Shown piece after piece: positions 1 to 32,110 of a DNA stretch of 64,000 nucleotides (its first letter is position 1; each line of letters begins with the position of its first letter). A program made the position numbers and the translations under genes. The stretch covers positions 72,108,001 through 72,172,000 of the forward strand of contig OZ076409.1 in assembly GCA_964187785.1 (NCBI GenBank), read 5' to 3'. Under the pieces are notes generated by a model. That model ran no database searches. It was given only the letters and a program-made list of their open reading frames with translations, and was not told the DNA's origin. This DNA is from Amphiscolops sp. MND2022 (taxonomy: Eukaryota).

Positions 1-885
1 ATTAAACCCTCCAAAAATGGGCCAAAATTACACGAAAAAATTGACCTTAAATTTTTAAAATGTCAAAAAATCATCAAAACCACAGCTTCTTGGGGTTCTA
101 TCAACTCCACGTGGTCCACAGAGTATGCTAAAACAGGTTTTACCTGTTTCTGAGCTATATGTGAAAAAACCGACATTTTGGGGAAGAAAAACATACCATT
201 TCCTAAAAAATTTCAAATGCACGCCATTTGCCGTATGAGAATAGCACAGAAAACTATCACATACCGATCAACTCTACTTCTATTGTAGATTATCAGATTT
301 TTGTTTAGAACAAATTTTTATGGATATAAAAAATTTTTAAACCCTCCAAAAATGAGCCAAAATAACACGAAAAAATGGACCCTAAATTTTTAAAATGTCA
401 AAAAATTATCCAAACCACAGCTTCTTGGGGTTCTATCAGCTCCACGTGGTCCACAGAGTATGCTAAAACAGGTTTTGCCCGTTTTTGAGCAGTATATGAA
501 AAAGCCGACATTTTTGGGGAAGAAAAACATACCATTTCCTAAATAATTTCAAATGCAGGCAATTTGCCGTATGAGAGTAGCACAGAAAACTATCACACAC
601 CGATCAACTCTACTTCTTTTGTAGATTATCAGAATTATGTTTAGAGTAAAGTTTTATGGATATGAAAAATTTTTATACCCTCCAAAAATGGGCCAAAATG
701 ACACGAAAAAATTGACCTCAAATTTTTAAAATGTCAAAAAATTATCCAAACCACAGCGTCTTGGCGTTCTATCAACTCCAAATGACCTTCAGAGTATACC
801 AAACCAGGTATTGCCAATCTTTTGAGCAATATTTAAAAACACCGACTATTTGGCAAGAACCCCATAATATGTTCCATAAAAGAAG
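1..885 (+). repeat. ~335-bp tandem repeat inside L module (partial)
   Basis: Recurrent AAACCCTCCAAAAATG / CCACGTGGTCCACAGAG / CATACCATTTCC motifs at ~335-bp period. Confidence 0.9.
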
Positions 886-1081
886 TGAATCATTCCACAT
901 ATATACCCGGTCTAATATTTCCAAATTAGCGATAACATTTATACATGATGGTTTTTGAAAGTGAGCTTCATAAGAGGTTGAGATGTAATAATACGTAAAT
1001 GGACCCTAAGTTTCATTGAAATCTCAATGGAATACGTCCAATCAACTTCAATCCTAACTATTATATAACAAAAAACACTTG

Positions 1082-1122
1082 AGTACATTCCATCTCCCCA
1101 TCGGGGGAGATGAGAATGTACT
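1082..1122. other. Long internal inverted repeat of L modules (also in Z at 52565-52607)
   Basis: AGTACATTC-CATCTCCCC-ATCG-GGGGAGATG-A-GAATGTACT: 18-bp stem with a 1-nt bulge. Confidence 0.85.
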
Positions 1123-1936
1123 TTTCAAAAGCCAAAAACTTCGAATTTTAAATCTTTTGTAACATTGTATGTAACTGTTGAAACGATGAACGAATAAAAA
1201 TGCTTCTAGTACCTTCATCAATTTTTGCTTCAGCTCCTATTTCTGCAGAACAAAACCAAAAGACACACTTACAGCAGTTAAGTTCGATTGTATAACTCAG
1301 TGAATAAAGGTATGACTGAGGAAGTTCACAAGTTGTTTCAAAAGTTTCCGGCCTTCCAAAATCATGAAACGTCCACACAACCAAGATAGCAAGTGAAAGA
1401 ATGCTGAATGCACCTTATTAGATGAGATAAATAATGTGTGGAACTTGCCATTATCTCAAGATGACGTTGATTTATGATCTTTTAAGGATAGTTCGATATG
1501 TGACCACAATAGTGGAAAACTTATTACTATTTGAAGAACACCGTGGAAAGCGTTCAGAAAGGACAGTATATTTGTTTCGAGCATGCATGCGTGTGTTCCT
1601 TTGGTGACGTTAGCTTAGTGTACATGACGGAGGTATTCGAGAGATTATGATAGAGTTTACTCACAAGTCTTTGTTTTTTTAAACTTTCTATGCCGTTGAG
1701 TACATTCGTAAGGTACATCCATCCCCTTCTCTGGGAATGTACGTTTGCCAAATGACTGTCATCCAAAATTCGTAATCCGGACGAGTTTAACTACATAAAC
1801 ATGTGATGAGCGTTTTCAATTCACAACCGAATAACATTTTTTTTCTCGAAAATGATGATGGTTTTGATTTTGATGTCTTCTACTTTTATCATCATGCAAA
1901 CGACCTTACCATGTCTCTCTTCTGTCGTGATTTGTA

Positions 1937-2048
1937 CAACGCCACATAGCGTTCCGACGCCCACCGTCTGTGGGCATGCCGAGGCATGCCCTTCGACGAC
2001 GTATGCCAAATGAGCCATACCCGCACTCTGGAGTGCGGTAGCGGCTAG
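1937..2048 (+). other. Conserved module 3'-terminal cassette (representative copy; present before all 21 junctions)
   Basis: CAACGCCACATAG..GACGCCCACCGTCTGT-GGGCATGCC GA GGCATGCCC (1972-1991)-TTCGACGACGTATGCC, then a family-specific tail with hairpin (2021-2038), then CTAG. Confidence 0.9.
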
Positions 2049-2104
2049 GTGGGCGGGGGTAATTCCCCTTCAAAAAATTCGGCCGGCGGGTTGGGTCCTG
2101 CCGG
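2049..2104 (+). other. Module 5'-terminal hairpin pair (representative copy)
   Basis: GGGG-TAATT-CCCC (2056-2068) and CCGGCGGG-TTGGGT-CCTGCCGG (2083-2104, one G-T pair). Confidence 0.75.
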
Positions 2105-3585
2105 ACGTCAAATAGTGTGAAACATCCAGTAGGAAACGGCGACATTTATCAGCGATTTTAAAATTGAACCGTTAGAATTTGGACTTGGAGTGCATGCGGG
2201 CCCAAAATGCCCATACGAATCGAAGTTCCTGCTGACGTTAAGCGATAAAAACACTTTATAAAAAGTTATGGCCCATTTTACGTTCACTTAGAGAGGTAAA
2301 ATGAGGAAAATTTTAACAAAGTTGCTGATAACTCAAAATACATTAATTTTTGGACTTTGACTGTGAAACAAGCTTGGAACCTTCATTTCGTGGCTGTGGC
2401 ATTGCACTGAACACAAAAGATGTAAAGTTTTCACATTTTTTGAAAATTCGACATTTTTGAATTTTTTTCACTACTATCAGTACACTATATGTCAAAAACA
2501 CCTCAGAAAAAAATTTTTATTTGCTTAAATTTAGAAACCTCGGTATCCATGGTTTCCGTCAGTACCTACTCGCAGCCAAACACTCAACAAATTGCATCCA
2601 ATGTGAAAATAAAATTTTTTTCGGGGTCATAAGCGTTTCACAAGGATTTCTCAACTTAGTATTAATTTACAAAATGGTCATTTTGAACACAATATTTTCA
2701 TCGAGGCTTGTCGGCTATAGCCTTAATGTTCTAGAACGGTCCCACTGGCAACGTAGGAACCATTTATAGTAATAGAAAGTTTTAAAAAAATTTTTTCATC
2801 CGGTCTTCAGTCATTTTTCAGTCATTCGGAACTTAACTTAGAAAAATTTCGACCAAAATACCCATTTTTTGTCAGGTCGAAAATTCAAATTCAGATTTTT
2901 AAGCAAAATTATTAACTCTGACGTAACCCATGGGGCCCATGATACTCAAAACAACAATTGACACTGGTATCAATGGCTCCAATAACATATGAGTCGCGAT
3001 AAGACGTTATTTTGAGCATTACGTCTCAATTGAGGTAAAGATCTCGCAAGCCAGCGATCACTGTGAAATGTGATTTCATCAAAAATTTACTCATTTTTGT
3101 CAATCACTATGTGCACAGAATGCGTAGGGTGCGTTTCAGCACTATAATGAGGTATTTGAAAGCATCGAGTTGCTCAAGGGGTGGTATGAGACCTTTTTGT
3201 CCCATATACTTCTGTATTTTCCAAAATTTTTAGCCCAATATCTGGAAATACAAACATGACAAAATACTTTCAACTACTTTATTCAAAGGTTACAATATAG
3301 ATGAACACTGTGGTTGATCAGAAACTTTCATCTCTTTCGTTTTCCGAAATATTTCCCTTCGCATGTGTTACATTTGTAGCAGAAAAAAATCGATACAGAA
3401 AAATACGCTATTTTGCTAATATAGAATCGCAATGATTGTGCCTAAAAACTCTTTAAACACTTCTAACGCGACCTTACGCACCCAAAAAGATCGAAAAGGC
3501 TATTCACAATGGTGACTTGTGCTCTTTCAACGATCCTGACTGAACAATTTTCGCAAATTATTCAAGTACCTGTTAACTGAATCTC

Positions 3586-3633
3586 GTGATAGCCTTTTAA
3601 GTTGGCCTTGTGTCAACTTGGGAAGGCTATCAC
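3586..3633. other. Long internal inverted repeat of S modules (also in Y at 49012-49054)
   Basis: GTGATAGCCTTTTAAGTTGGC-CTTGT-GTCAACTTGGGAAGGCTATCAC: ~20-bp stem with G-T pairs. Confidence 0.85.
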
Positions 3634-4842
3634 ATCAAAAAATTTTCAACAAAAATACTTTTTGTTTATTGAAAATGACAGTCGATATATAATTTCGTGA
3701 TTCTATGCTACCGTTAGTACCTTCCATTAAGTCACCTGACGATTGCATTCAGTCTTTGATAAATACCTATGAACTCGAAGTCATATTTATAACTTTTTTG
3801 CTAAAAATAAACATCAAAATTATCCAAATTTATTAAAATTGAGTCTTTATTGTTTTTGTTTTTCTTTTTCTACTGTTATTAGGCCCATCAACTTCCTACA
3901 GCCACGCTCTCTGTCATACTGTACAACGCCACATAGTGTTGCGACGTGCACGGTCTGTGGGCATGCCGAGGCATGCCCTTCGACGACGTATGCCGAATAC
4001 CGCGGGCCTACGCCCGCGCTCCCCGGCTAGGTGGGCGGGGGTAATTCCCCAACTAAAAAATCGGCCGGCGGGTAGGGTCCTGCCGGCCGTCCAAAATCAA
4101 AAATATACTAGTAGAAAACGGCCGGTCAAACGAGCTATTTTTTTATTTAACCGTTAGAATTTGGGTTTAGATTGCATGCGGCCATGAAATGGCCATACGA
4201 ATCGAAGTTCCTGCTGACGTTTTGCGATTGAAACACTTTATAAAAAGTTATGGCCAATTTGTCAGTCACCTAGAAGGGCAAAATGAGGAAAATTTTAACA
4301 AAGTCGCTGATAACTCAAAATGTGTTATTTTTTGGACTTTGACTGTGAAACAAGCTTGGAACCTTCATTTCGTGGCTGTGGCATTGCACTGAACGCAAAA
4401 GATGTAAAGTTTTTACATTTTTTGAAAATTTGACATTTTTGAAATTTTTTTCACTACTATCAGTACCATATATGTCAAAAACACCTCAGAAAAAAAATTT
4501 TATTTGCTTTAACTTGGAAACCTTGGTATCCATGGTTTCTGTCGGAACCTACTCGCAACCAAACAACCAACAGTTTGCATCCAATGTGAAAATAAAAAAT
4601 TTTTCTGGGTCATAAGCGTTTCACAAGGATTTCTCAACTTAGTATTACTTTACAAAATGGTCATTTTGAACACAATATTTTCATCGAGGCTTGTCGGCTA
4701 TAGCCTTAATGTTCTAGAACGGTCCCACTGGCAACGTAGGAACCATTTATAGTAATAGAAAGTTTTTAAAAAATATTTTCACCCTGTTTTCAGTCATTTT
4801 TCAGTCATTCGGAACTTAACTTAGAAAAATTTCGACCAAAAT

Positions 4843-5960
4843 ACCCATTTTTTGACAGATCGAAAATTCAAATTCAACTTTTTAAGCAAAATTATTAACT
4901 CTGACGTAACCAGTGGGGCTCATGATACTCAAAAACACGATTGGGACTGGTACCAATGGCTCCAATATCATATGAGCCGCGATAAGACGTTATTTTGAGC
5001 AATACGTCTCAATTGAGGGAAACATCTCGCAAGCCTGGGATCACAGTTAAAAGTGATTTCGTCAAAAATTTACTCTTTTTCGTCAATCACTATGTACACA
5101 GAGTGCGTAGGGTGAGTTTCAGCACTATAATGCGGTTTTTGAAGGAATCGGTCTGCTCAAGGGGTGGTATGAGACATTTTTTTGCATGTAGTACTATATT
5201 TCTCAAAACTTTTAGCCCATTATCTCGAAAAGCTCACTTCGCAAATTACTTTCAGTTACTCTATTCGAAGCTTAGAATATATATGAACACTGTGGTTGAT
5301 CAGAAACTCTTGACTATTTTGTTTTTGGAAAAAAACTGCCTTGCATGTGTTACATTAGTGGCAGGAAAAATACCAGTAGCTCCAAAAATCACAATTTTGG
5401 ACGGACAGACCTGCAATGATGCAAAGCAAAAACGTTTCAACAACTTCTGGCGCCACTTTTTTTACCCAAGAGGTTCGAAAACACCATTAACAATGCTGAC
5501 ATTCGCAATAAATAAGATCGAGGTCTATTTACTAACACTTAGAATTTAAATTTTTTTCTCGGAAACCCATTATTGTCAGGTCGCAAATTCAAATTTGGTT
5601 TTGGAAGCAATACTTTTCACTCTGAAGCAAACCGTTGGGCCCAAAATACTCAACAACAACAAAAAGACTATCACCATATGCTCTAATAACATATGAGATG
5701 CGACTGTATGTTTTTAACACAATAACTCTCATTCTGAAGTAAACATGTTGAAAGCCTTGAATCACCGTGAGACGTGATTTCATCAAAAAACATTTCTTTT
5801 TCGTCAATCTTTATCTACACAGAACACGTTGTGTCATTTTCAGCCGTGAAATGAGCTTCTACCGTAATATGGGTTGCTCAAGGTGTTGTATAAGACAAAA
5901 ACTTCCTCTTTTCTACTATCTTCTTCAAATATTTCAACCCTTTGTCACAAGAAGTTAATA
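4843..5960 (+). repeat. Old internal duplication in L modules (~720-bp offset; representative copy)
   Basis: 4843-5180 (ACCCATTTTTTGACAGATCG...TGCTCAAGGGGTGGTATGAGAC) aligns by eye with 5564-5897 (ACCCATTATTGTCAGGTCG...TGCTCAAGGTGTTGTATAAGAC). Confidence 0.8.
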
Positions 5961-6264
5961 TTCAAAATCTCTTTGAAATGTTTCTTTAGGTTGGGGTGAA
6001 GTGTTAGAACAATAATTATGATCGAAGAATGATAGTATTGGTGTTTGGACCATGTCCGGATGAACAAATTGCAAAATCATGAAAAATTTCTTACCATTTT
6101 TGGTCATTTTGTCAGTACTAAAAATGTTAGCTGAAAAAGAATTTTTTGATGGCACCATTCGATTCCTCTCAAAAAGTTAGCTATATGAACTGTGTAATAA
6201 CCCCGTATCTTTTCAATTTAAATAATTTTAAAAAGCAAACTTTTTTGACTAAAATCCTAAAAAT

Positions 6265-7608
6265 CATACCATTTCCTAAAAAATTTCAAATGCCCCCCAT
6301 TTGACGTATAAGAATAGCACAGAAAACTATCACATACCGATCGACTCTACTTCCATTGTAGATTACCAGAATTTTGTTTAGAACAATTTTTGACGGATGC
6401 AAAAAAAAATTAAACCCTCCAAAAAAGGGCCAAAATTACACGAAAAAATTGACCTTAAAATTTTAAAATGTCGAAAAATCATCAAAACCACAGCTTCTTG
6501 GGGTTCTATCAACTCCACGTGGTCCACAGAGTATGTTAAAACAAGTTTTACCCGTATTTGAGCAATATGTGAAAAAGCCGACTTTTTTGGGAATGAAAAA
6601 CATACCATTTCCTAAAAAATTTCAGACGCACCCCATTTGACGTATAAGAATAGCACAGAAAACTATCACATACCGATCGACTCTACTTCCATTGTAGGTT
6701 ACCAGAATCTTGTTTAGAACAATTGTTGACGGATGCAAAAAAAATTAAACCCTCCAAAAATGGGCCAAAATTACACGAAAAAATTGACCTTAAATTTTTA
6801 AAATGTCAAAAAATCATCAAAACCACAGCTTCTTGGGGTTCTATCAATTCCACGTGGTCCACAGAGTATGCTAAAACAGGTTTTACCTGTTTCTGAGCTA
6901 TATGTGAAAAAACCGACATTTTGGGGAAGAAAAACATACCATTTCCTAAAAAACTTCAAATGCACGCCATTTGCCGTATGAGAATAGCACAGAAAACTAT
7001 CACATACCGATCAACTCTACTTCTATTGTAGATTATCAGATTTTTGTTTAGAACAAATTTTTATGGATATAAAAAATTTTTAAACCCTCCAAAAATGAGC
7101 CAAAATAACACCAAAAAATGGACCCTAAATTTTTAAAATGTCAAAAAATTATCCAAACCACAGCTTCTTGGGGTTCTATCAGCTCCACGTGGTCCACAGA
7201 GTATGCTAAAACAGGTTTTGCCCGTTTTTGAGCAGTATATGAAAAAGCCGACATTTTTGGGGAAGAAAAACATACCATTTCCTAAATAATTTCAAATGCA
7301 GGCAATTTGCCGTATGAGAGTAGCACAGAAAACTATCACACACCGATCAACTCTACTTCTTTTGTAGATTATCAGAATTATGTTTAGAGTAAAGTTTTAT
7401 GGATATGAAAAATTTTTATACCCTCCAAAAATGGGCCAAAATGACACGAAAAAATTGACCTCAAACTTTTAAAATGTCAAAAAATTATCCAAACCACAGC
7501 GTCTTGGCGTTCTATCAACTCCAAATGACCTTCAGAGTATACCAAACCAGGTATTGCCAATCTTTTGAGCAATATTTAAAAACACCGACTATTTGGCAAG
7601 AACACCAT
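6265..7608 (+). repeat. ~335-bp tandem repeat, ~4 copies
   Basis: CATACCATTTCCTAAA at 6265, 6601, 6935 and 7271 (periods 336, 334, 336). Confidence 0.92.
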
Positions 7609-8791
7609 AATATGTTCCATATAAGAAGTGAATCATTCCACATATATACCCGGTCTAATATTTCCAAATTAGCGATAACATTTATACATGATGGTTTTTG
7701 AAAGTGAGCTTCATAAGAGGTTGAGATGTAATAATACGTAAATGGACCCTAAGTTTCATTGAAATCTCAATGGAATACGTCCAATCAACTTCAATCCTAA
7801 CTATTATATAACAAAAAACACTTGAGTACATTCCATCTCCCCATCGGGGGAGATGAGAATGTACTTTTCAAAAGCCAAAAACTTCGAATTTTAAATCTTT
7901 TGTAACATTGTATGTAACTGTTGAAACGATGAACGAATAAAAATGCTTCTAGTACCTTCATCAATTTTTGCTTCAGCTCCTATTTCTGCAGAACAAAACC
8001 AAAAGACACACTTACAGCAGTTAAATTCGATTGTATAACTCAGTGAATAAAGGTATGACTGAGGAAGTTCACAAGTTGTTTCAAAAGTTTCCGGCCTTCC
8101 AAAATCATGAAACGTCCACACAACCAAGATAGCAAGTGAAAGAATGCTGAATGCACCTTATTAGATGAGATAAATAATGTGTGGAACTTGCCATTATCTC
8201 AAGATGACGTTGATTTATGATCTTTTAAGGATAGTTCGATATGTGACCACAATAGTGGAAAACTTATTACTATTTGAAGAACACCGTGGAAAGCGTTCAG
8301 AAAGGACAGTATATTTGTTTCGAGCATGCATGCGTGTGTTCCTTTGGTGACGTTAGCTTAGTGTACATGACGGAGGTATTCGAGAGATTATGATAGAGTT
8401 TACTCACAAGTCTTTGTTTTTTTAAACTTTCTATGCCGTTGAGTACATTCGTAAGGTACATCCATCCCCTTCTCTGGGAATGTACGTTTGCCAAATGACT
8501 GTCATCCAAAATTCGTAATCCGGACGAGTTTAACTACATAAACATGTGATGAGCGTTTTCAATTCACAACCGAATAACATTTTTTTTCTCGAAAATGATG
8601 ATGGTTTTGATTTTGATGTCTTCTACTTTTATCATCATGCAAACGACCTTACCATGTCTCTCTTCTGTCGTCATTTGTACAACGCCACATAGCGTTCCGA
8701 CGCCCACCGTCTGTGGGCATGCCGAGGCATGCCCTTCGACGACGTATGCCAAATGAGCCATACCCGCACTCTGGAGTGCGGTAGCGGCTAG

Positions 8792-11700
8792 GTGGGCGGG
8801 GGTAATTCCCCAACAAAAAAATCGGCCGGCGGGTCGGGTCCTGCCGGCCGTCCAAAATCAAAATTATACTAGTAGAAAACGGCCGGTCAAACGAGCTATT
8901 TTTTTATTTAACCGTTAGAATTTGGGTTTAGATTGCATGCGGCCATGAAATGGCCATACGAATCGAAGTTCCTGCTGACGTTTTGCGATTGAAACACTTT
9001 ATAAAAAGTTATGGCCAATTTGTCAGTCACCTAGAAGGGCAAAATGAGGAAAATTTCAACAAAGTCGCTGATAACTCAAAATGTGTTAATTTTTGGACTT
9101 TGACTGTGAAACAAGCTTGGAACCTTCATTTCGTGGCTGTGGCATTGCACTAAACACAAAAGATGTAAAGTTTTTACATTTTTTGAAAATTCGAAATATT
9201 TGAAATTTTTTTCACTACTATCAGTACCCCATATGTCAAAAACACCTCAGAAAAAAATTTTTATTTGCTTTAAATTGAATACCTTGGTATCCATGGTTTC
9301 TGTCGGAACCTACTCGCAGCCAAACACCCAACAGTTTGCATCCAATGTGAAAATAATTTTTTTTTCGAGGTTATAGGTGTATCACAAGGATTTCACAACT
9401 TAGTATTAATTTACAAAATGGTCATTTTCAACATCATATTTTCATCGAGGCATGTCGGATATAGTCTTAATGCTCACGACCGGTCCTACTGGCAACGTAA
9501 TACCCATTTATAGAAATATAAAGTTTAAAAAAAATATTTTCACCCGATCTTCAGTCATTTTTCAGTCATTCGGAACTTAACTTAGAAAAATTTCGACCAA
9601 AATACCCATTTTTGTCAGGTCGAAAATTCAAATTCAGCTTTTTAAGCTAAATTATTAAATCTGACGTAACCAGTGGGGCCAATGAAACTCAAAACTGCAA
9701 TAGACACTGGTATCAATGGCTCCAATAACATATGAGTCGCGATAAGGCGTTATTTTGAGCATTACGTCTCAATTGAGGTAAACATCTCGCAAGCCAGAGA
9801 TCACTGTGAAAAGTGATTTCATCAAAAATTTACTCATTTTCGTCAATCACCATGTGCACAGAATGCGTAGGGTGAGTTTCAGCACTATAATGCGGTTTTT
9901 GAAGGAATCGGTCTGCTCAAGGGGTGGTATGAGACATTTTTTTTCATGTAGTACTATATTTCTCAAAACTTTTAGCCCATTATCTCGAAAAGCTCACTTC
10001 GCAAATTACTTTCAGTTACTCTATTCGAAGCTTAGAATATATATGAACACTGTGGTTGATCAGAAACTCTTGACTATTTTGTTTTTGGAAAAAAACTGCC
10101 TTGCATGTGTTACATTAGTGGCAGGAAAAATACCAGTAGCTCCAAAAATCACAATTTTGGACGGACAGACCTGCAATGATGCAAAGCAAAAACGTTTCAA
10201 CAACTTCTGGCGCCACTTTTTTTACCCAAGAGGTTCGAAATTACTATTAACAATGCTGACATTCGCTATAAATAAGATCGAGGTCAATTTACTAACACTT
10301 AGGTTATACATTTATATCTGAGAAACCATTCTTTGTCAGGTCGCAATTTTAAATTTAGTTTGGGAAACAATACTTTTCACTCTGAAGCAAACCGTTGGGC
10401 CCAAATTACTCAAAAACTACAAAAAGACTGTCACCATATGCCCTAATAGCATATGAGATTCGACCGTTCGTTTTTAACACAAAAACTCTCATCCGAAGTA
10501 AACATGTTGAAAGCCTTGAATCACCGTGAGAAATGATTTCATCAAAAAATATTCCTTTTTCGTCAATCTTCATCTACACAGAACACGTTGTGTCATTTTC
10601 AGCCGTGAAATGAGCTTCTACCGTAATATGGGTTGCTCAAGGTGTTGTATAAGACAAAAACTTCCTCTTTTCTACTATCTTCTTCAAATATTTCAACCCT
10701 TTGTCACAAGAAGTTAATATTCAAAATCTCTTTGAAATGTTTCTTTAGGTTGGGGTGAAGTGTTAGAACAATAATTATGATCGAAGAATGATAGTATTGG
10801 TGTTTGGACCATGTCCGGATGAACAAATTGCAAAATCATGAAAAATTTCTTACCATTTTTGGTCATTTTGTCAGTACTAAAAATGTTAGCTGAAAAAGAA
10901 TTTTTTTGATGGCACCATTGGATTCCTCTCAAAAAGTTAGCTATATGAACTGTGTAATAACCCCGTATCTTTTCAATTTAAATAATTTTAAAAAGCAAAC
11001 TTTTTTGACTAAAATCCTAAAAATCATACCATTTCCTAAAAAATTTCAAATGCCCCCCATTTGACGTATAAGAATAGCACAGAAAACTATCACATACCGA
11101 TCGACTCTACTTCCATTGTAGATTACCAGAATTTTGTTTAGAACAATTTTTGACGGATGCAAAAAAAATTTAAACCCTCCAAAAAAGGGCCAAAATTACA
11201 CGAAAAAATTGACCTTAAAATTTTAAAATGTCGAAAAATCATCAAAACCACAGCTTCTTGGGGTTCTATCAACTCCACGTGGTCCACAGAGTATGTTAAA
11301 ACAAGTTTTACCCGTATTTGAGCAATATGTGAAAAAGCCGACTTTTTTGGGAATGAAAAACATACCATTTCCTAAAAAATTTCAAACGCACCCCATTTGA
11401 CGTATAAGAATAGCACAGAAAACTATCACATACCGATCGACTCTACTTCCATTGTAGGTTACCAGAATCTTGTTTAGAACAATTGTTGACGGATGCAAAA
11501 AAAAATTAAACCCTCCAAAAATGGGCCAAAATTACACGAAAAAATTGACCTTAAATTTTTAAAATGTCAAAAAATCATCAAAACCACAGCTTCTTGGGGT
11601 TCTATCAACTCCACGTGGTCCACAGAGTATGCTAAAACAGGTTTTACCTGTTTCTGAGCTATATGTGAAAAAACCGACATTTTGGGGAAGAAAAACATAC

Positions 11701-13552
11701 CATTTCTTAAAAAATTTCAAATGCACGCCATTTGCCGTATGAGAATAGCACAGAAAACTATCACATACCGATCAACTCTACTTCTATTGTAGATTATCAG
11801 ATTTTTGTTTAGAACAAATTTTTATGGATATAAAAAATTTTTAAACCCTCCAAAAATGAGCCAAAATAACACGAAAAAATGGACCCTAAATTTTTAAAAT
11901 GTCAAAAAATTATCCAAACCACAGCTTCTTGGGGTTCTATCAGCTCCACGTGGTCCACAGAGTATGCTAAAACAGGTTTTGCCCGTTTTTGAGCAGTATA
12001 TGAAAAAGCCGACATTTTTGGGGAAGAAAAACATACCATTTCCTAAATAATTTCAAATGCAGGCAATTTGCCGTATGAGAGTAGCACAGAAAACTATCAC
12101 ACACCGATCAACTCTACTTCTTTTGTAGATTATCAGAATTATGTTTAGAGTAAAGTTTTATGGATATGAAAAATTTTTATACCCTCCAAAAATGGGCCAA
12201 AATGACACAAAAAAATTGACCTCAAATTTTTAAAATGTCAAAAAATTATCCAAACCACAGCGTCTTGGCGTTCTATCAACTCCAAATGACCTTCAGAGTA
12301 TACCAAACCAGGTATTGCCAATCTTTTGAGCAATATTTAAAAACACCGACTATTTGGCAAGAACACGATAATATGTTCCATATAAGAAGTGAATCATTCC
12401 ACATATATACCCGGTCTAATATTTCCAAATTAGCGATAACATTTATACATGATGGTTTTTGAAAGTGAGCTTCATAAGAGGTTGAGATGTAATAATACGT
12501 AAATGGACCCTAAGTTTCATTGAAATCTCAATGGAATACGTCCAATCAACTTCAATCCTAACTATTATATAACAAAAAACACTTGAGTACATTCCATCTC
12601 CCCATCGGGGGAGATGAGAATGTACTTTTCAAAAGCCAAAAACTTCGAATTTTAAATCTTTTGTAACATTGTATGTAACTGTTGAAACGATGAACGAATA
12701 AAAATGCTTCTAGTACCTTCATCAATTTTTGCTTCAGCTCCTATTTCTGCAGAACAAAACCAAAAGACACACTTACAGCAGTTAAGTTCGATTGTATAAC
12801 TCAGTGAATAAAGGTATGACTGAGGAAGTTCACAAGTTGTTTCAAAAGTTTCCGGCCTTCCAAAATCATGAAACGTCCACACAACCAAGATAGCAAGTGA
12901 AAGAATGCTGAATGCACCTTATTAGATGAGATAAATAATGTGTGGAACTTGCCATTATCTCAAGATGACGTTGATTTATGATCTTTTAAGGATAGTTCGA
13001 TATGTGACCACAATAGTGGAAAACTTATTACTATTTGAAGAACACCGTGGAAAGCGTTCAGAAAGGACAGTATATTTGTTTCGAGCATGCATGCGTGTGT
13101 TCCTTTGGTGACGTTAGCTTAGTGTACATGACGGAGGTATTCGAGAGATTATGATAGAGTTTACTCACAAGTCTTTGTTTTTTTAAACTTTCTATGCCGT
13201 TGAGTACATTCGTAAGGTACATCCATCCCCTTCTCTGGGAATGTACGTTTGCCAAATGACTGTCATCCAAAATTCGTAATCCGGACGAGTTTAACTACAT
13301 AAACATGTGATGAGCGTTTTCAATTCACAACCGAATAACATTTTTTTTCTCGAAAATGATGATGGTTTTGATTTTGATGTCTTCTACTTTTATCATCATG
13401 CAAACGACCTTACCATGTCTCTCTTCTGTCGTCATTTGTACAACGCCACATAGCGTTCCGACGCCCACCGTCTGTGGGCATGCCGAGGCATGCCCTTCGA
13501 CGACGTATGCCAAATGAGCCATACCCGCACTCTGGAGTGCGGTAGCGGCTAG
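8792..13552 (+). mobile_element. L-class module (4761 bp), variant 5' part
   Basis: Same termini and layout as 4031-8791. The 5' ~1 kb carries different variants. Confidence 0.65.
11025..12369 (+). repeat. ~335-bp tandem repeat, ~4 copies
   Basis: Same block as 6265-7608. Confidence 0.9.
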
Positions 13553-16500
13553 GTGGGCGGGGGTAATTCCCCAACTAAAAAATCGGCCGGCGGGTAGGGT
13601 CCTGCCGGCCGTCCAAAATCAAAAATATACTAGTAGAAAACGGCCGGTCAAACGAGCTATTTTTTATTTAACCGTTAGAATTTGGGTTTAGATTGCATGC
13701 GGCCATGAAATGGCCATACGAATCGAAGTTCCTGCTGACGTTTTGCGATTGAAACACTTTATAAAAAGTTATGGCCAATTTGTCAGTCACCTAGAAGGGC
13801 AAAATGAGGAAAATTTTAACAAAGTCGCTAATAACTCAAAATGTGTTATTTTTTGGACTTTGACTGTGAAACAAGCTTGGAACCTTCATTTCGTGGCTGT
13901 GGCATTGCACTGAACCCAAAAGATGTAAAGTTTTTACATTTTTTGAAAATTTGACATTTTTGAAATTTTTTTCACTACTATCAGTACCATATATGTCAAA
14001 AACACCTCAGAAAAAAAATTTTATTTGCTTTAACTTGGAAACCTTGGTATCCATGGTTTCTGTCGGAACCTACTCGCAACCAAACAACCAACAGTTTGCA
14101 TCCAATGTGAAAATAAAAAATTTTTCTGGGTCATAAGCGTTTCACAAGGATTTCTCAACTTAGTATTAATTTACAAAATGGTCATTTTGAACACAATATT
14201 TTCATCGAGGCTTGTCGGCTATAGCCTTAATGTTCTAGAACGGTCCCACTGGCAACGTAGGAACCATTTATAGTAATAGAAAGTTTAAAAAAAATATTTT
14301 CACCCTGTCTTCAGTCATTTTTCAGTCATTCGGAACTTAACTTAGAAAAATTTCGACCAAAATACCCATTTTTTGACAGATCGAAAATTCAAATTCAACT
14401 TTTTAAGCAAAATTAGTAACTCTGACGTAACCAGTGGGGCTCATGATACTCAAAAACACGATTGGGACTGGTACCAATGGCTCCAATATCATATGAGCCG
14501 CGATAAGACGTTATTTTGAGCAATACGTCTCAATTGAGGGAAACATCTCGCAAGCCTGGGATCACAGTTAAAAGTGATTTCGTCAAAAATTTACTCTTTT
14601 TCGTCAATCACTATGTACACAGAGTGCGTAGGGTGAGTTTCAGCACTATAATGCGGTTTTTGAAGGAATCGGTCTGCTCAAGGGGTGGTATGAGACATTT
14701 TTTTTGCATGTAGTACTATATTTCTCAAAACTTTTAGCCCAATATCTCGAAAAGCTCACTTCGCAAATTACTTTCAGTTACTCTATTCGAAGCTTAGAAT
14801 TTATATGAACACTGTGGTTGATCAGAAACTCTTGACTATTTTGTTTTTGGAAAAAAACTGCCTTGCATGTGTTACATTAGTGGCAGGAAAAATACCAGTA
14901 GCTCCAAAAATCACAATTTTGGACGGACAGACCTGCAATGATGCAAAGCAAAAACGTTTCAACAACTTCTGGCGCCACTTTTTTTACCCAAGAGGTTCGA
15001 AATTACTATTAACAATGCTGACATTCGCTATAAATAAGATCGAGGTCAATTTACTAACACTTAGGTTATACATTTATATCTGAGAAACCATTCTTTGTCA
15101 GGTCGCAATTTTAAATTTAGTTTGGGAAGCAATACTTTTCACTCTGAAGCAAACCGTTGGGCCCAAATTACTCAAAAACTACAAAAAGACTGTCACCATA
15201 TGCCCTAATAGCATATGAGATTCGACCGTATGTTTTTAACACAAAAACTCTCATCCGAAGTAAACATGTTGAAAGCCTTGAATCACCGTGAGAAATGATT
15301 TCATCAAAAAATATTCCTTTTTCGTCAATCTTTATCTACACAGAACACGTTGTGTCATTTTCAGCCGTGAAATGAGCTTCTACCGTAATATGGGTTGCTC
15401 AAGGTGTTGTATAAGACAAAAACTTCCTCTTTTCTACTATCTTCTTCAAATATTTCAACCCTTTGTCACAAGAAGTTAATATTCAAAATCTCTTTGAAAT
15501 GTTTCTTTAGGTTGGGGTGAAGTGTTAGAACAATAATTATGATCGAAGAATGATAGTATTGGTGTTTGGACCATGTCCGGATGAACAAATTGCAAAATCA
15601 TGAAAAATTTCTTACCATTTTTGGTCATTTTGTCAGTACTAAAAATGTTAGCTGAAAAAGAATTTTTTGATGGCACCATTGGATTCCTCTCAAAAAGTTA
15701 GCTATATGAACTGTGTAATAACCCCGTATCTTTTCAATTTAAATAATTTTAAAAAGCAAACTTTTTTGACTAAAATCCTAAAAATGATACCATTTCCTAA
15801 AAAATTTCAAATGCCCCCCATTTGACGTATAAGAATAGCACAGAAAACTATCACATACCGATCGACTCTACTTCCATTGTAGATTACCAGAATTTTGTTT
15901 AGAACAATTTTTGACGGATGCAAAAAAAATTTAAACCCTCCAAAAAAGGGCCAAAATTACACGAAAAAATTGACCTTAAAATTTTAAAATGTCGAAAAAT
16001 CATCAAAACCACAGCTTCTTGGGGTTCTATCAACTACACGTGGTCCACAGAGTATGTTAAAACAAGTTTTACCCGTATTTGAGCAATATGTGAAAAAGCC
16101 GACTTTTTTGGGAATGAAAAACATACCATTTCCTAAAAAATTTCAAACGCACCCCATTTGACGTATAAGAATAGCACAGAAAACTATCACATACCGATCG
16201 ACTCTACTTCCATTGTAGGTTACCAGAATCTTGTTTAGAACAATTGTTGACGGATGCAAAAAAAAATTAAACCCTCCAAAAATGGGCCAAAATTACACGA
16301 AAAAATTGACCTTAAAATTTTAAAATGTCAAAAAATCATCAAAACCACAGCTTCTTGGGGTTCTATCAACTCCACGTGGTCCACAGAGTATGCTAAAACA
16401 GGTTTTACATGTTTCTGAGCTATATGTGAAAAAACCGACATTTTGGGGAAGAAAAACATACCATTTCTTAAAAAATTTCAAATGCACGCCATTTGCCGTA

Positions 16501-18312
16501 TGAGAATAGCACAGAAAACTATCACATACCGATCAACTCTACTTCTATTGTAGATTATCAGATTTTTGTTTAGAACAAATTTTTATGGATATAAAAAATT
16601 TTTAAACCCTCCAAAAATGAGCCAAAATAACACGAAAAAATGGACCCTAAATTTTTAAAATGTCAAAAAATTATCCAAACCACAGCTTCTTGGGGTTCTA
16701 TCAGCTCCACGTGGTCCACAGAGTATGCTAAAACAGGTTTTGCCCGTTTTTGAGCAGTATATGAAAAAGCCGACATTTTTGGGGAAGAAAAACATACCAT
16801 TTCCTAAATAATTTCAAATGCAGGCAATTTGCCATATGAGAGTAGCACAGAAAACTATCACACACCGATCAACTCTACTTCTTTTGTAGATTATCAGAAT
16901 TATGTTTAGAGTAAAGTTTTATGGATATGAAAAATTTTTATACCCTCCAAAAATGGGCCAAAATGACACGAAAAAATTGACCTCAAATTTTTAAAATGTC
17001 AAAAAATTATCCAAACCACAGCGTCTTGGCGTTCTATCAACTCCAAATGACCTTCAGAGTATACCAAACCAGGTATTGCCAATCTTTTGAGCAATATTTA
17101 AAAACACCGACTATTTGGCAAGAACACCATAATATGTTCCATATAAGAAGTGAATCATTCCACATATATACCCGGTCTAATATTTCCAAATTAGCGATAA
17201 CATTTATACATGATGGTTTTTGAAAGTGAGCTTCATAAGAGGTTGAGATGTAATAATACGTAAATGGACCCTAAGTTTCATTGAAATCTCAATGGAATAC
17301 GTCCAATCAACTTCAATCCTAACTATTATATAACAAAAAACACTTGAGTACATTCCATCTCCCCATCGGGGGAGATGAGAATGTACTTTTCAAAAGCCAA
17401 AAACTTCGAATTTTAAGTCTTTTGTAACATTGTATGTAACTGTTGAAACGATGAACGAATGAAAATGCTTCTAGTACCTTCATCAATTTTTGCTTCAGCT
17501 CCTATTTCTGCAGAACAAAACCAAAAGACACACTTACAGCAGTTAAGTTCGATTGTATAACTCAGTGAGTAAAGGTATGACTGAGGAAGTTCACAAGTTG
17601 TTTCAAAAGTTTCCGGCCTTCCAAAATCATGAAACGTCCACACAACCAAGATAGCAAGTGAAAGAATGCTGAATGCACCTTATTAGATGAGATAAATAAT
17701 GTGTGGAACTTGCCATTATCTCAAGATGACGTTGATTTATGATCTTTTAAGGATAGTTCGATATGTGACCACAATAGTGGAAAACTTATTACTATTTGAA
17801 GAACACCGTGGAAAGCGTTCAGAAAGGACAGTATATTTGTTTCGAGCATGCATGCGTGTGTTCCTTTGGTGACGTTAGCTTAGTGTACATGACGGAGGTA
17901 TTCGAGAGATTATGATAGAGTTTACTCACAAGTCTTTGTTTTTTTAAACTTTCTATGCCGTTGAGTACATTCGTAAGGTACATCCATCCCCTTCTCTGGG
18001 AATGTACGTTTGCCAAATGACTGTCATCCAAAATTCGTAATCCGGACGAGTTTAACTACATAAACATGTGATGAGCGTTTTCAATTCACAACCGAATAAC
18101 ATTTTTTTCTCGAAAATGATGATGGTTTTGATTTTGATGTCTTCTACTTTTATCATCATGCAAACGACCTTACCATGTCTCTCTTCTGTCGTCATTTGTA
18201 CAACGCCACATAGCGTTCCGACGCCCACCGTCTGTGGGCATGCCGAGGCATGCCCTTCGACGACGTATGCCAAATGAGCCATACCCGCACTCTGGAGTGC
18301 GGTAGCGGCTAG
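13553..18312 (+). mobile_element. L-class module (4760 bp)
   Basis: Same termini and layout. Near-identical to the module starting at 59646. Confidence 0.65.
15786..17130 (+). repeat. ~335-bp tandem repeat, ~4 copies
   Basis: Same block as 6265-7608. Confidence 0.9.
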
Positions 18313-20304
18313 GTGGGCGGGGGTAATTCCCCAACAAAAATTACGGCCGGCGGGTTGGGTCCTGCCGGACGTTCAAATAGCGCGAAGCATCTAGTAGAAA
18401 ACAAGGAGTCCTGAAACAGCGATTTTAAAATTGAACCGTTAGAATTTGGTTTTAGATTGCATGCGGCCCTAAAATCCCCATACGAATGGAAGTTCCTGCT
18501 GGCGTTAAGCGATTGAAATAATATATAAAAAGTTATGGCCCATTTTTGGGTCACCGAGAAGGTCAAAATGAAGAAAATTTTAACTAAGTTGCTGATAACT
18601 CAAAATGTGGTAATTTTTGGACTTTGACTGTGAAACAAGCTTGGAACCTTCATTTCGTGGCTGTGGCATTGCACTGAACACAAAAGATGTAAAGTTTTCA
18701 CATTTTTTGAAAATTCGACATTTTTGAATTTTTTTTCACTACTATCAGTACACTATATGTCAAAAACACCTCTGAAAAATTTTTTTATTTGCTTAAATTT
18801 AGAAACCTCGGTATCCATGGTTTCCGTCAGTACCTACTCGCTGCCAAACACTCAACAGTTTGCATCCAATGTGAAAATAAAATTTTTTTCGAGGTCTTAG
18901 GTGTTTCACAAGGATTTCTCAACTTAGTATCAATTTACAAATTGGTCATTTTGAACACATTATTTTCATCGAAGCGTGTCATATACCGCCCTAATGCTCA
19001 CGAACGGGCCTACTGGCAACGTTGGAACCATTTATAGTAATAAAAAGTTTTAAAAAATTTTTTTCACCCCGTCTTCAGTCATTTTACACACTTTCGGAAC
19101 TTAACTTAGAAAAATTTCAACCAAAAACCCATTTTTTGTCAAGTCGAAAATTCAAATTCAGCTTTTTAAGCAAAATAAATAAATCTGACATAACCAGTGG
19201 GGCCCATGAAACTCAAAACCACGATTGAGACTGGTATCAATGGCTCCAATAACATATGAGTCGCGATAAGACGCTATTTTGAGCAAAACATCTCAATTGA
19301 GGTAAAGATCTCGCAAGCCAGCGATCACTGTGAAATGTGATTTCATCAAAAATTTACTCTTTTTTGTCAATCACTATGTGCACAGAATGCGTAGGGTGCG
19401 TTTCAGCACTATAATGAGGTTTTTGAAGGCATCGAGTTGCTCAAGGGGTGGTATGAGACATTTTTGTCCCATATACTACTGTAGTTTCCAAAATTTTTAC
19501 CCCAATATCTGGAAATACAAACTTGACAAAATACTTTCAACTACTTTATTCAAAGGTTACAATATAGATGAACACTGTGGTTGATAAGAAACTTTCATCT
19601 CTTTCGTTTTCGGAAATATTTCCGTTCGCATGTGTTACATTCATAGCAGAAAAAAAAATCGAAACTGAAAAATACGCTATTTTGCTGATATAGAATCGCA
19701 ATGATTGTGCCTAAAAACTCTTTAAACACTTCTAACGCAACCACCTTACGCACCCAAAATGATCGAAAATGCTATTCACAATGGTGACATGTGCTCTTTC
19801 TACGATCCTGGCTGGACAAGGTTTGCATATTTTTCAAGTACCTGTCAGCTAAATCTTGTGATAGCCTTTTCAGTTGGCCTTGTGTCAACTTGGGAAGGCT
19901 ATCACATCAAAAAACCATCAACAAAAATAATTTTTGTTTATTGGATCTTACAGTCGATACTTTTTTTCGTGATTCTATACTACCGTTAGTATATTTCATC
20001 AGGTCACCTTACGATTGCATTCAGTCTTTGATAAAAACCTATGAACTCAAAGTCACATTTATATATTTTTTTGCCAAAAAATAATATCAAAAATATCTAA
20101 AATACATAAAATAGAGTCTTTAACATTTTTACGTTTCAAGTTTTTGCCGTTATCAGGCCAATCAACGTCCTAGAGCCACATCCTGCCACATACTGTACAA
20201 CGCCACATAGTGTTGCGACGTGCACAGTCTGTGGGCATGCCGAGGCATGCCCTTCGACGACGTATGCCGAATACCGCGGGCCTACGCCCGCGCTCCCCGG
20301 CTAG
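18313..20304 (+). mobile_element. S-class module (1992 bp)
   Basis: GTGG start, S-type tail + CTAG. Near-identical to 25066-27053 and 44811-46799. Confidence 0.65.
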
Positions 20305-23300
20305 GTGGGCGGGGGTAATTCCCCAACTAAAAAATCGGCCGGCGGGTAGGGTCCTGCCGGCCGTCCAAAATCAAAATTATACTAGTAGAAAACGGCCGGT
20401 CAAACGAGCTATTTTTTTATTTAACCGTTAGAATTTGGGTTTAGATTGCATGCGGCCATGAAATGGCCATACGAATCGAAGTTCCTGCTGACGATTTGCG
20501 ATTGAAACACTTTATAAAAAGTTATGGCCAATTTGTCATTCACCTAGAAGGGCAAAATGAGGAAAATTTTAACAAAGTCGCTGATAACTCAAAATGTAAT
20601 AATTTTTGGACTTTGACAGTGAAACAAGCTTGGAACTGTCATTTCGTGGCTGTGGCATTGCACTGAACACAAAAGATGTAAAGTTTTCACATTTTTTGAA
20701 AATTCGACATTTTTGAATTTTTTTCACTACTATCAGTACACTATATGTCAAAAACGCCTCTGAAAAAAATTTTTATTTGCTTAAAATTAGAAACCTTGGT
20801 ATCCATGGTTTCCGTCAGTACCTAATCGCTGCCAAACGCTCAACAGTTTGCATCCAATGTGAAAATATAATTTTTTTCGAGGTCATAGGTGTTTCACAAG
20901 GATTTCTCAACTTAGTATCTATTTACAAATTGGTCATTTTGAACACATTATTTTCATCGAAGCGTGTCAGATACCACCCTAATGCTCACAAATGGGCCTA
21001 CTGGCAACGTTGGAACCATTTTTAGTAATAGAAAGTATTAAAAAAATATTTTCACCCGGTCTTCAGTCATTTTTCAGACATTCGGTACTTAACTTAGAAA
21101 AATTTCGCATCAAAAACCCATATTTGGTAGGGTCGAAAATTGAAATTCAGTTTTTTATGCAAAATGATTAACTCTGACGTAACCAGTGGAGCCCATGATA
21201 CTCAAAAACACGATTGGGACTGGTATCAGTGGCTCCAATAACATATGAGCCGCGATAAGACGTTATTCAGAGCAAACGCTCTAAATCGAAGTAAACATCT
21301 CTGAAGCCTGGGATCACAGTGAAATGTGATATCACCAAAAGTTTACTCTTTTTTGTCAATCACTATGTACACAGAGTGCGTAGGGTGAGTTTCAGGACTA
21401 TAATGAGGTTTTTGAAGTAATCGCGCTGCTCAAGGGGTGGTATGAGACTATTCTTTCCCATATACTACTACATTTCCATAAATTTGCAGTCCATTGTCTT
21501 GGAAAGATAACTTCACAAAAACAATTTTTCTACTCTATTCAGTTATTAGAATAAAGTTGAACACTGTGGTTGATCAGAAATGCTCAATTCTTTTGGTTTT
21601 TAAAAAAATTCCTTCGCATTCGTTACATTTGTGGAAGGAAGGTTATCAGTAGCTCCAAAAAAAAACGAAATTTAGCACGAACAGACATGCAACGATGCAA
21701 AGCAAAAACGTTTTTACAACTTCCGACGTCATTATTTTACCCAAGAAGTTCGAAAATATCATTCGCAATGCTGTCATTCGCTATATATACGATCGCGGTC
21801 AATTTACAAACATTTAGATTTCATTGTTCTGCTTGAAAACCAATTTTTGTCAGGTCGAAATTTTAAATTTTGCCTGGGTAGCAATACCCTTCACGCTGAA
21901 GTAAACAGTGGGGCCCAAGTTACTCAAAAACAAGAAAGAGACTGCTACAATATGTCCTAATAACATATGGACCACGATAGTACGTTTTTCACACAAAAAA
22001 CTCTCATCCGAAGTAAATATGTTGAAAGCTTTTAATCACCGTGAGAAGTGATTTCATCAAAAAATAACTCTTTTTTGTCAATCACTGTTTACACAGAATT
22101 TGTAAAGTTAGTTTGAGTCATGAAATGAGGCTTTACCGTAATATGGGTTGCTCAAGGTGTTATATAAGACAAAAACTTCCTCTTTACTACTAGCTTCTTC
22201 AAATATTTCAACCCTTTGTCACAATAAGTTAATATTCAAAATCTCTTTGAAATGTATCTTTATGTTGGGGTGAAGTCTAAGAACAATAACTATGATCGAA
22301 GAATGATAGTACTGGTGTTTGAACCATGTCCGGATGAACAAATCACAAAATCATCAAAAAATTGTTCCCTTTTTTGGTTATTTTGGCAGTACTAAAAATG
22401 TTAGCTGATAAATAATTTTTTCGATGGCACCATTGGATTCCTCTCAAAAAGTTGGTTATATGACCTGTGTAATAACCCCGTATCTTTTCAATTTAAATAT
22501 ATTTAAAAAGCCAACTATTTTGACCAAAATCCTAAAAATCATACCATTTCCTAAAAATTTTCAAATGCACCCCATTTGACGTATAAGATAAGCACAGAAA
22601 ACTATCATATACCGATCAACTCTACTCCCATTGTAGATTATTATAATTTTGTTTAGAATGAATTTTGATGGATATTAAAAAAATTTTGAACCCTCCAAAA
22701 ATGGGCCAAAATTACACGAAAAAATTGACCTTAAAATACCAAAATGTCAAAAAATCATCAAAACCACGGCTTCTTGGGGTTCTATTAACTCCGCGTGGTC
22801 CACAGAGTATGCTAAAACAGGATTTACCCGTTTTTGAGCAATATGTGAAAAAGCCGACATTTTTGGGAAAGAAAAACATACCATTTCCTAAAAAAATTCA
22901 AATGCACGTCATTTGCCGTATTAGAATAGCACAGAAAACTATCACATACCAATCAACTCTACTTTCATTGCAGATGAACAGAATTTTGTTTAGAATAAAT
23001 TTTACCGGATAATAAAAAAAGTTGAATCCTTCAAAAATGGGCCAAAATTACACGAAAAAATGGACATTAAAAATTTAAAATGTCAAAAAATCATCAAAAC
23101 AACAGCTTCTTGGGCTTCTATCAACTCCACGAGGTCCACAGAGTATGCTAAAACAGGTTTTACCCGTTTTTGAGCAATATCTGAAAAAGCCGACATTTTT
23201 GGGAAAGAAAAACATACCATTTCCTAAAAAAATTCAAATGCACGCCATTTGCCGTATGAAAATAGCACAGAAAACTATCACATACCAATCAACTCTACTT

Positions 23301-32000: not shown

Positions 32001-32110
32001 ACCAATAACACCTTCAACTGTTAATCAACGCCCACCGTCCGTAGGCATGCCGAGGCATGCCTTTCGACGACGCGCGCCAAAAACAATATAACGGCGCCAC
32101 CCGCTTCTGG
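29039..32110 (+). mobile_element. Singleton module X (3072 bp)
   Basis: Starts GTGGTCAG directly after CTAG. The body is not alignable by eye to L or S. Ends with the variant box AGGCATGCC-GA-GGCATGCCT (32043-32062) and CTGG. Confidence 0.65.

Follow-up and report, generated by a model that had tools for sequence, protein, structure and literature searches.

The 64-kb window (the whole stretch of DNA analysed, 64,000 nucleotides) is occupied by a single head-to-tail array of 20 complete modules and two further modules clipped by the window ends, and no DNA outside modules was found within it (Table 1). Non-coding modules of several distinct families follow each other in mixed order. All 21 junctions lie on the + strand and share one layout, in which the core palindrome comes first, the tail and CT(A/G)G follow, and the next head starts with GTGG, as the first-pass annotation had noted for the heads (21 of 21). 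The complete modules span 1.3-4.8 kb. The S family (~1.99 kb) comprises 10 copies and the divergent S', the L family (4.76 kb) is characterized by four internal repeats of 336 bp and includes the variants L' and L'', and the modules X, Y and Z are each present as a single copy. S and L have ~1470 nt of their 5' side in common (~85%), and the parts that X, Y and Z share with other modules are limited to short patches and the 3' core. All 20 complete modules are full length, and truncated or nested module ends were not found within the window (0 of 246 terminal BLAST hits off a junction). The GC content per 2 kb ranges from 32 to 45%, and the observed/expected CpG ratio is 0.96, that is, without depletion.

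Table 1. Positions of the array, of its junction elements and of representative modules in the 64-kb window.
Feature	Position	Strand	Description
Continuous array	1..64000	+	Module order L S L L L S L' S S X S S S S L S Y S Z S' L'' L
3' subterminal core, 45 nt	1957..2001	+	Present at all 21 junctions and in L002; two CRACG-type repeats before it
Core palindrome, 20 bp	1972..1991		Ends 49-59 nt before the junction
L tail (5 copies)	2008..2048	+	Hairpin 2021-2038; CTAG 2045-2048
Exchange window G-GTGG	2048..2052	+	Letters common to all 21 junctions at the joint
Head hairpin 1, GGGG-TAATT-CCCC	2056..2068	+	In the main heads; altered forms in Y, L'' and L002, none evident in X or Z
Head hairpin 2	2080..2107	+	Family-specific stem; conserved GGG-K(A/T/C)GGG-W-CC top; 37-57 nt past the junction
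S tail (10 copies)	3995..4030	+	Hairpin 4001-4018
L module example, 4761 nt	4031..8791	+	Four 336-bp repeats at 6260-7594; 3 differences from 40049-44810
L' tail	25024..25065	+	Hairpin 25038-25055
X module, 3072 nt	29039..32110	+	Tail without significant hairpin; CTGG end
Y module, 2791 nt	46800..49590	+	Internal repeat of ~503 bp; tail without significant hairpin
Z module, 1304 nt	51579..52882	+	Bulged tail hairpin 52846-52865
S' module	52883..54874	+	Tail hairpin 54847-54864
L'' module	54875..59645	+	Head divergent; no significant hairpin in the tail

The divergent single-copy modules Y, Z, S' and L'' are grouped in the right third of the window (46800-59645), and near-identical L and S copies predominate on its left side. 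Judged from only 21 junctions, the array may have grown with a polarity. A single sequencing run matched (share 0.10), with no RNA data set listed, and one of its contigs joins the S' tail (54883) to a Y-like body (47230) across a gap, with 36 letters on the short side and 80% likeness; this is a weak hint of another module order and carries no weight as evidence.

Pfam searches with 74 ORFs (at least 62 aa) from seven representative modules gave no match for 73 of them. The remaining ORF, a frame present in a single copy, matched the influenza PB2 domain with 23.5 of the required 25 bits, which is below the cut-off and was taken as chance. As far as these 74 ORFs of seven representatives go, the modules are non-coding. 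The lack of genes and the kind of repeat suggest a eukaryotic host. A stop-free frame of 187 codons in L (4986-5549, + strand) also occurs in other L copies, is broken in S and has no Pfam match; it is probably a chance frame. Rfam searches of the whole window at gathering thresholds and a tRNA search of the window gave no matches, and at E ≤ 5 the region 46500-55200 produced one Rfam match (E 2.8), which was judged to be chance. Poly(A) or simple-repeat tails were absent from all 21 junctions, and no Pol III A box or B box was found near them with the usual box patterns.

The most telling property of the array, missed by the first-pass annotation, is that whole modules have been shuffled, with exact ends, at a site of 5-9 nt. 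The type of tail at a junction is independent of the head that follows it (8 × 8 types; 15 different pairings among the 21 junctions; permutation p = 0.60), and the head of a module is linked to its own tail (0 of 20,000 permutations). Copies that are 99-100% alike are never adjacent: these are M02 and M14 (3 differences in 4762 positions), M04 and M21 (18 differences in 4355 positions), and M05, M07 and M15 (16-20 differences in ~1990 positions). The nearest relative is the neighbour for only one of 20 modules, and the similarity of neighbours is at the random level (p = 0.67). In the 300 nt upstream of near-identical pairs, 34-76 positions differ in four of the five cases, the fifth pair (M05 and M15) following two L copies, and the downstream flanks are different in all four comparable cases. 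At the narrowest, the identity runs of related copies end 1 nt upstream and 4 nt downstream of the joint, which places the exchange point within G-GTGG, or within 9 nt if the CTGG of X arose later; the common letters become GGTG when L002, a related junction from a metagenome described below, is included. Homologous recombination requires longer stretches than 5-9 nt. The separation of close relatives together with the free order of tails and heads is not the pattern that tandem duplication or a rolling-circle concatemer of one copy would produce.

Two S modules (36080-38065 and 49591-51578) and two L modules (8792-13552 and 20305-25065) have mosaic bodies, the first 200 nt being identical to one sub-type and the remainder nearest to others, which points to recombination or template switching inside modules. 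Recombination inside the bodies cannot reshuffle pairs of tail and head. This bears on the proposal that ordinary Helitron concatemers, or a higher-order-repeat satellite, were mixed later by unequal crossing-over or gene conversion through the shared core or the bodies. Plant Helitron concatemers were reportedly described by Xiong et al. in 2016, and the available parts of other accounts place Helitron tandem arrays in plants, bats, frogs and cnidarians (PMC11934779, PMC12001565, PMC5876387). The S and L bodies are mutual mosaics, so recombination inside modules does occur. However, crossing-over in the core would unlink tail and body, and in all 15 copies of S and L the body still carries its own tail; crossing-over in the bodies would fix the tail-head pairs, which are independent. 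Moreover, four of the heads have only 4 nt in common with the rest, and concatemers predict identical neighbours, which the array does not have. These points already disfavour later mixing of concatemers or of a satellite, and we regard it as improbable.

The core and the head hairpin are present at all 21 junctions and are thus more constant than the tail. Between families the core is 87-100% identical, and the 250 nt upstream of it align at 48-77%, mostly ~50%. The core palindrome matches the p53-family element (two RRRCWWGYYY decamers, here without spacer; consensus from PMC3485254) at 19 of 20 positions in all 21 modules and in both of its variants, and no other p53-like palindrome was found in the 64-kb window. 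Random palindromes of the same shape reach 19 of 20 positions in 0.02-0.04% of cases, a figure to be read with the fact that the likeness was spotted post hoc and not predicted. The sole paired change in the palindrome, G..C to A..T, is compatible with a hairpin and with the p53 consensus alike. Judged from its letters, the palindrome could be a genuine p53-family site, although we hold the contrary to be rather more probable. The same p53-like palindrome occurs in L002 (812-831). Descriptions of p53 elements in Helitrons were not found in the literature outside Repbase and subscription papers. The palindrome is preceded, at distances of 12 and 31 nt, by one or two CCAC words complementary to the GTGG of the head (1940-1965 and in other modules); by analogy with IS200/IS605 elements, these words may have a role in guide pairing.

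Head hairpin 1 resembles an NF-kB/Dorsal-type site (GGG-W5-CCC), both at the example in Table 1 and in the other main heads. Head hairpin 2 folds better than shuffled sequences in seven of the eight head types, and four of its seven pairs are changed on both sides. Its covariation score (0.459) was reached by none of 500 shuffles and exceeds all six slid controls; the alignment consisted of eight rows anchored on the loop, three of them close kin, and the shuffle control overstates the support because the structure was derived from these same rows. One pair is G-T in five of the eight rows and G-C in three, which suggests that folding takes place on the + strand. A model built from the head hairpin strongly matched all 21 heads and L002, and elsewhere only the opposite strands of heads and one weak site, a specificity that is partly by construction.

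Tandem repeats of a small non-coding RNA gene, each copy with its upstream promoter and the spacers variable, would likewise show a conserved block that precedes a structured segment starting with G. Against this, the heads of different families diverge after 4 nt, the only Rfam match is the chance one mentioned above, and the exact shuffling of whole bodies is left unexplained, which makes a small RNA gene very improbable. A spread of the modules through RNA would give the core with its p53-like site the role of promoter for the next module and the structured head that of the RNA 5' end, comparable to the head-to-tail arrays of telomeric retroelements. The position of the core 49-59 nt upstream of every head, the rarity of 19 of 20 matches among random palindromes and the G-U/G-C pairs kept by the head hairpin on the + strand all agree with such a route. 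The array itself does not: its 20 complete modules are full length, none being truncated at the 5' side, the junctions have neither poly(A) nor an A or B box nearby, and no Rfam family or tRNA was detected in the window. We give the RNA route little credence.

The first-pass annotation had centred on the tails, proposing that they differ between families and keep a GC-rich hairpin before CTRG. Eight distinct tails are indeed present at the 21 junctions, with lengths of 32-42 nt by our cut (30-41 nt in the annotation). The four 18-nt hairpins that it listed, those of the L, S, L' and S' tails, lie at the annotated positions and fold as described, at distances of 6, 8, 6 and 6 nt, respectively, from the CTAG that follows; the hairpin of Z, also where annotated, is bulged and stops 13 nt before CTAG. 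When the tails of the window were folded against shuffled controls, a check that the annotation had suggested (500 dinucleotide shuffles per tail), five of the eight types (L, S, L', Z and S') beat chance with p values of 0.006-0.024. The X, Y and 59645 tails, already described as weakly folding, did not (p = 0.30, 0.79 and 0.66, respectively). With a narrower cut of the tails, four of eight types were above chance, the 5' arm of the Z hairpin then being cut off, and p ≤ 0.02 was also obtained for nine of 150 segments of 42 nt taken at random. Hairpins located 6-13 nt before CTRG are found at 18 of the 21 junctions, and the claim that the tails keep one holds for these and not for X, Y, the 59645 tail or L002. 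Similarly, CTRG precedes the head at every junction of the window (20 CTAG and one CTGG, the latter at the end of X, as annotated), but it is not a fixed feature, L002 having CGAG at this position.

The L, L' and S' tails are relatives: their last 14 nt are the same, and two of the stem pairs show compensatory changes, which argues for selection on that hairpin. The same 14-nt end is found in the Y and L'' (59645) tails, where the hairpin is absent and the junctions are nonetheless exact. Counting L002, the hairpin is present in five of nine tail types; it is real and yet dispensable, given its absence from X, Y, the 59645 tail and L002. Together, the tail hairpin and CTRG represent the least constant signal at the module ends. 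The finding of the annotation was thus correct in its particulars, but its title generalised too far.

A search of metagenomes with the core pattern identified two loci. One of them, L001, is an intergenic hairpin in a bacterial contig with 63% GC and was rejected as a chance match. The other, L002 (1172 nt), is a true junction, whose upstream module is 59% like the 3' half of Z over 640 nt and whose downstream module is 63% like the Y head from its first base. This order, Z-like followed by Y-like, is absent from the window. L002 keeps the core and both head hairpins. At its junction CGAG is followed by a head starting with GTGC, and a tail hairpin is lacking (p = 0.72). Its existence indicates that the architecture is old and not an assembly artefact, and that CTRR and the tail hairpin are not a fixed part of it. 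The core pattern had no matches in viral contigs or in prokaryote genomes, and a phage collection gave no match. An internal palindrome retrieved seven loci from viral contigs, which were alike only in the searched word and were dropped.

Several internal motifs are shared between otherwise different modules. An inverted repeat of ~39 nt (GTACATTC-CATCTCCC ... GGGAGATG-AGAATGTAC) is present in L (1083-1121), Z (52567-52606) and L002 (567-605) with 82-91% identity, though the surrounding bodies barely align; L has a weaker second copy near 1700-1741, and S, X and Y have none. S (~1540-1590 nt into the module) and Y (region of 49038-49045) share a palindromic motif, GATAGCC...AAGTTG...CAACTT...GGCTATC, with 78% identity over 54 nt. 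X (29039-32110) contains 11 and Y (46800-49590) five copies of CCGGAA(A/G)T, a word that resembles ETS sites and that was absent from the other modules tested.

We compared the module ends with those of known element classes. According to the available parts of the literature, elements of the HLE1 class have a 5' TC, a 3' CTRR preceded by a hairpin and insert between A and T, and HLE2 elements have terminal inverted repeats of 11-18 nt and insert between T and T (PMC4067079, PMC11417382, PMC5148889). The array has CTRR at the 3' side of all 21 junctions in the window, with CGAG in L002 and the exact cut not fixed, and a hairpin of 16-20 nt ~11 nt from the 3' end in five of nine tail types and at 18 of 21 window junctions. 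All 21 heads start with GTGG, no cut within the exchange window yields TC, and no AT step occurs at positions -6 to +8 in the seven distinct junction sequences, the ends of the array lying beyond the window. The annotation was right to doubt both the 5' end and the additional palindrome. Reading the modules on the minus strand gave no TC or CTRR either. Among the HLE2 features, hairpins near both ends are present, as the head hairpin and the core palindrome of all 21 junctions. Asymmetric terminal inverted repeats in 10 modules were at the shuffle level (longest perfect 5-8 nt, with one mismatch 7-10 nt), the best being an 8-mer in L (p = 0.05), and no step from T to T or from T to C exists within the exchange window. 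A candidate asymmetric repeat between GGTGGGCG in the head and CGCCCACC in the core was rejected, as it is found in L only. Since TC, the A-T and T-T targets and the inverted repeats are all lacking, the modules are filed under neither HLE1 nor HLE2; they likely work like Helitrons.

Judging by the accessible text on HLE1 elements such as Helraiser and Helibat1, the modules share with them a 3' end that resembles CTRR and in most tails has a hairpin of 16-20 nt ~10 nt before it, a 3' end more conserved than the 5' end, the lack of a target duplication, and exact head-to-tail junctions, which the HLE1 transposase forms and cleaves. They differ in having no 5' TC or A-T target, a hairpin and CTRR that are not fixed, and an additional core and head hairpin, and in forming mixed, shuffled arrays where the HLE1 tandem arrays described in those texts are concatemers of one copy. 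With HLE2 elements (Helitron2, Helentron/HINE and FoHeli), as far as excerpts describe them, they share hairpins at both ends, internal tandem repeats and a conserved subterminal 3' block ~40-60 nt from the end, FoHeli3-5 being reported with a TG start and a 5' hairpin only. Unlike HLE2 elements, they have no asymmetric inverted repeat of 11-18 nt, no T-T target and no T-rich ends.

Partial accounts of Helitrons concentrated in one chromosomal compartment offer a further parallel. They include the chromosome-end Helitrons of Paramecium, inserted into telomeric repeats in fixed orientation (PMC13085455), subtelomeric Helitron-like arrays of Hydractinia (PMC11934779), centromeric Helitron units of Meloidogyne (PMC13404089) and frog Helitron arrays (PMC12001565). 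The Paramecium, Hydractinia and Meloidogyne elements are, like the modules, of the Helitron type, in many cases non-autonomous and satellite-bearing, and confined to one compartment, and those of Paramecium also have a fixed orientation and a specific target. However, the consulted portions of these three accounts do not mention that different families are joined exactly end to end at the element's own junction. Mixed, junction-targeted arrays were likewise not found described in our literature search, which covered sources other than Repbase and subscription papers.

Replitrons are eukaryotic HUH elements that, in the portions of the source available, move by copy-and-paste, insert beside RG in a specific orientation and have short terminal direct repeats and a right-end palindrome (PMC10288648). 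RG precedes the head at all 22 junctions including L002, in agreement with the RG rule, and a direct repeat is one way to read the block that the junctions have in common, with the limit that an array cannot separate element from target. Replitrons have been described from plants, algae and protists and have fuzzy right ends and duplications in Chlamydomonas, with no mixed arrays in the text seen; the modules, unlike them, show no Rep among the 74 ORFs tested.

The short common crossover block fits a site-specific recombinase equally well. An enzyme of the Crypton tyrosine type or similar could excise modules as circles and re-insert them at a junction, the hairpins and the palindrome serving as its binding sites, and the result would be an integron-like eukaryotic cassette array. 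Exchange limited to 5-9 common nucleotides, without duplication or truncation and in free order, is what such an enzyme would leave. Cryptons have direct repeats of 4-6 bp at both ends and a proposed circular intermediate (PMC3212892, consulted in part), to be compared with the block of 4-9 nt common to all junctions. The free order is cassette-like, and family-specific hairpins of conserved shape recall attC sites, both by comparison with bacterial integrons. On the other side, tyrosine recombinase sites have inverted repeats of 11-13 bp around a core of 6-8 bp (excerpts of PMC3212892), which the crossover block lacks across families, its flanks varying independently when the alignment is inspected by eye. 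In addition, dispersed copies that are 99-100% alike point to copying, CTRG with a hairpin ~10 nt upstream is a Helitron pattern, and no recombinase was found among the 74 ORFs tested. The modules also differ from Cryptons and integron cassettes in being gene-less. We consider a recombinase unlikely, though it is the main rival explanation.

The explanation that we favour, with somewhat more confidence than doubt, is that the modules are non-autonomous rolling-circle (Helitron-like) elements, moved in trans by a putative HUH enzyme and inserted at existing junctions. It retains the rolling-circle element with atypical ends of the first-pass annotation as the best reading and shifts the weight from the tail hairpin and CTRG to the 3' core and the head hairpin. 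The single orientation, unit-length modules, the fixed junction and the lack of terminal inverted repeats above the shuffle level count in its favour. The available text on the Helraiser transposase shows that it joins ends precisely into circles and cleaves head-to-tail junctions precisely on the top strand, with the 3' hairpin as a dispensable stop signal (PMC4778049, PMC5876387). Internal tandem repeats, as carried by L and Y, are frequent in non-autonomous Helitron-type elements according to the parts seen of two further sources (PMC4067079, PMC12001565). Against the rolling-circle explanation stand the lack of an enzyme among the 74 ORFs tested, the missing 5' TC, A-T or T-T target and terminal inverted repeats, the loss of CTRR in L002 and of the tail hairpin in four of nine types, and the Helitron literature, whose available parts report A-T or T-T targets and describe tandem arrays as concatemers, not as junction targeting.

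Under the rolling-circle explanation, each junction would be a complete origin, with the core as the binding site and a nick within G-GTGG. The enzyme would nick one junction and peel off one module on the + strand, and a unit circle would be closed where the next junction is reached, with the tail hairpin as a stop signal that is optional. Exchange of the circle junction with a chromosomal junction would then add a module without target duplication and leave two junctions. A chromosomal junction that stayed a good substrate would act as donor origin and target alike, and repeated rounds would generate a mixed array. The mosaic sub-types would come from recombination inside module bodies.

A more far-reaching idea is that the modules belong to a new eukaryotic class of mobile cassettes, in which many families use one recombination or nicking site and integrate only at mutual junctions, forming integron-like arrays of free order, and in which DNA damage or germline stress, through the conserved 3' p53-family element, activates the neighbouring cassette or its mobilisation. 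We think this distinctly unlikely as a whole. A p53-like site kept constant across families that are otherwise ~50% alike would link mobilisation to host stress signalling.

The interest of the locus lies in the precisely shuffled multi-family array with its conserved core and head hairpin, more than in the tail hairpins. In the usual view, as given in the available parts of the literature, Helitron tandem arrays are concatemers of one element and insertion is nearly unspecific, between A and T or between T and T. Lacking a 5' TC and terminal inverted repeats, the modules would be missed by structure-based Helitron scanners. Families joined with base precision in free order need an enzyme that targets the element's own junction, and insertion at the junctions of other elements, if true, would be an unusual targeting rule. 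If the partner is a recombinase, the locus would represent a eukaryotic cassette array. If it is an HUH enzyme, it would be a sequence-specific single-strand integrase in a eukaryote and a lead for targeted, stackable gene insertion, and the array would exemplify a safe-haven strategy for a transposon and a route to the growth of large heterochromatic arrays.
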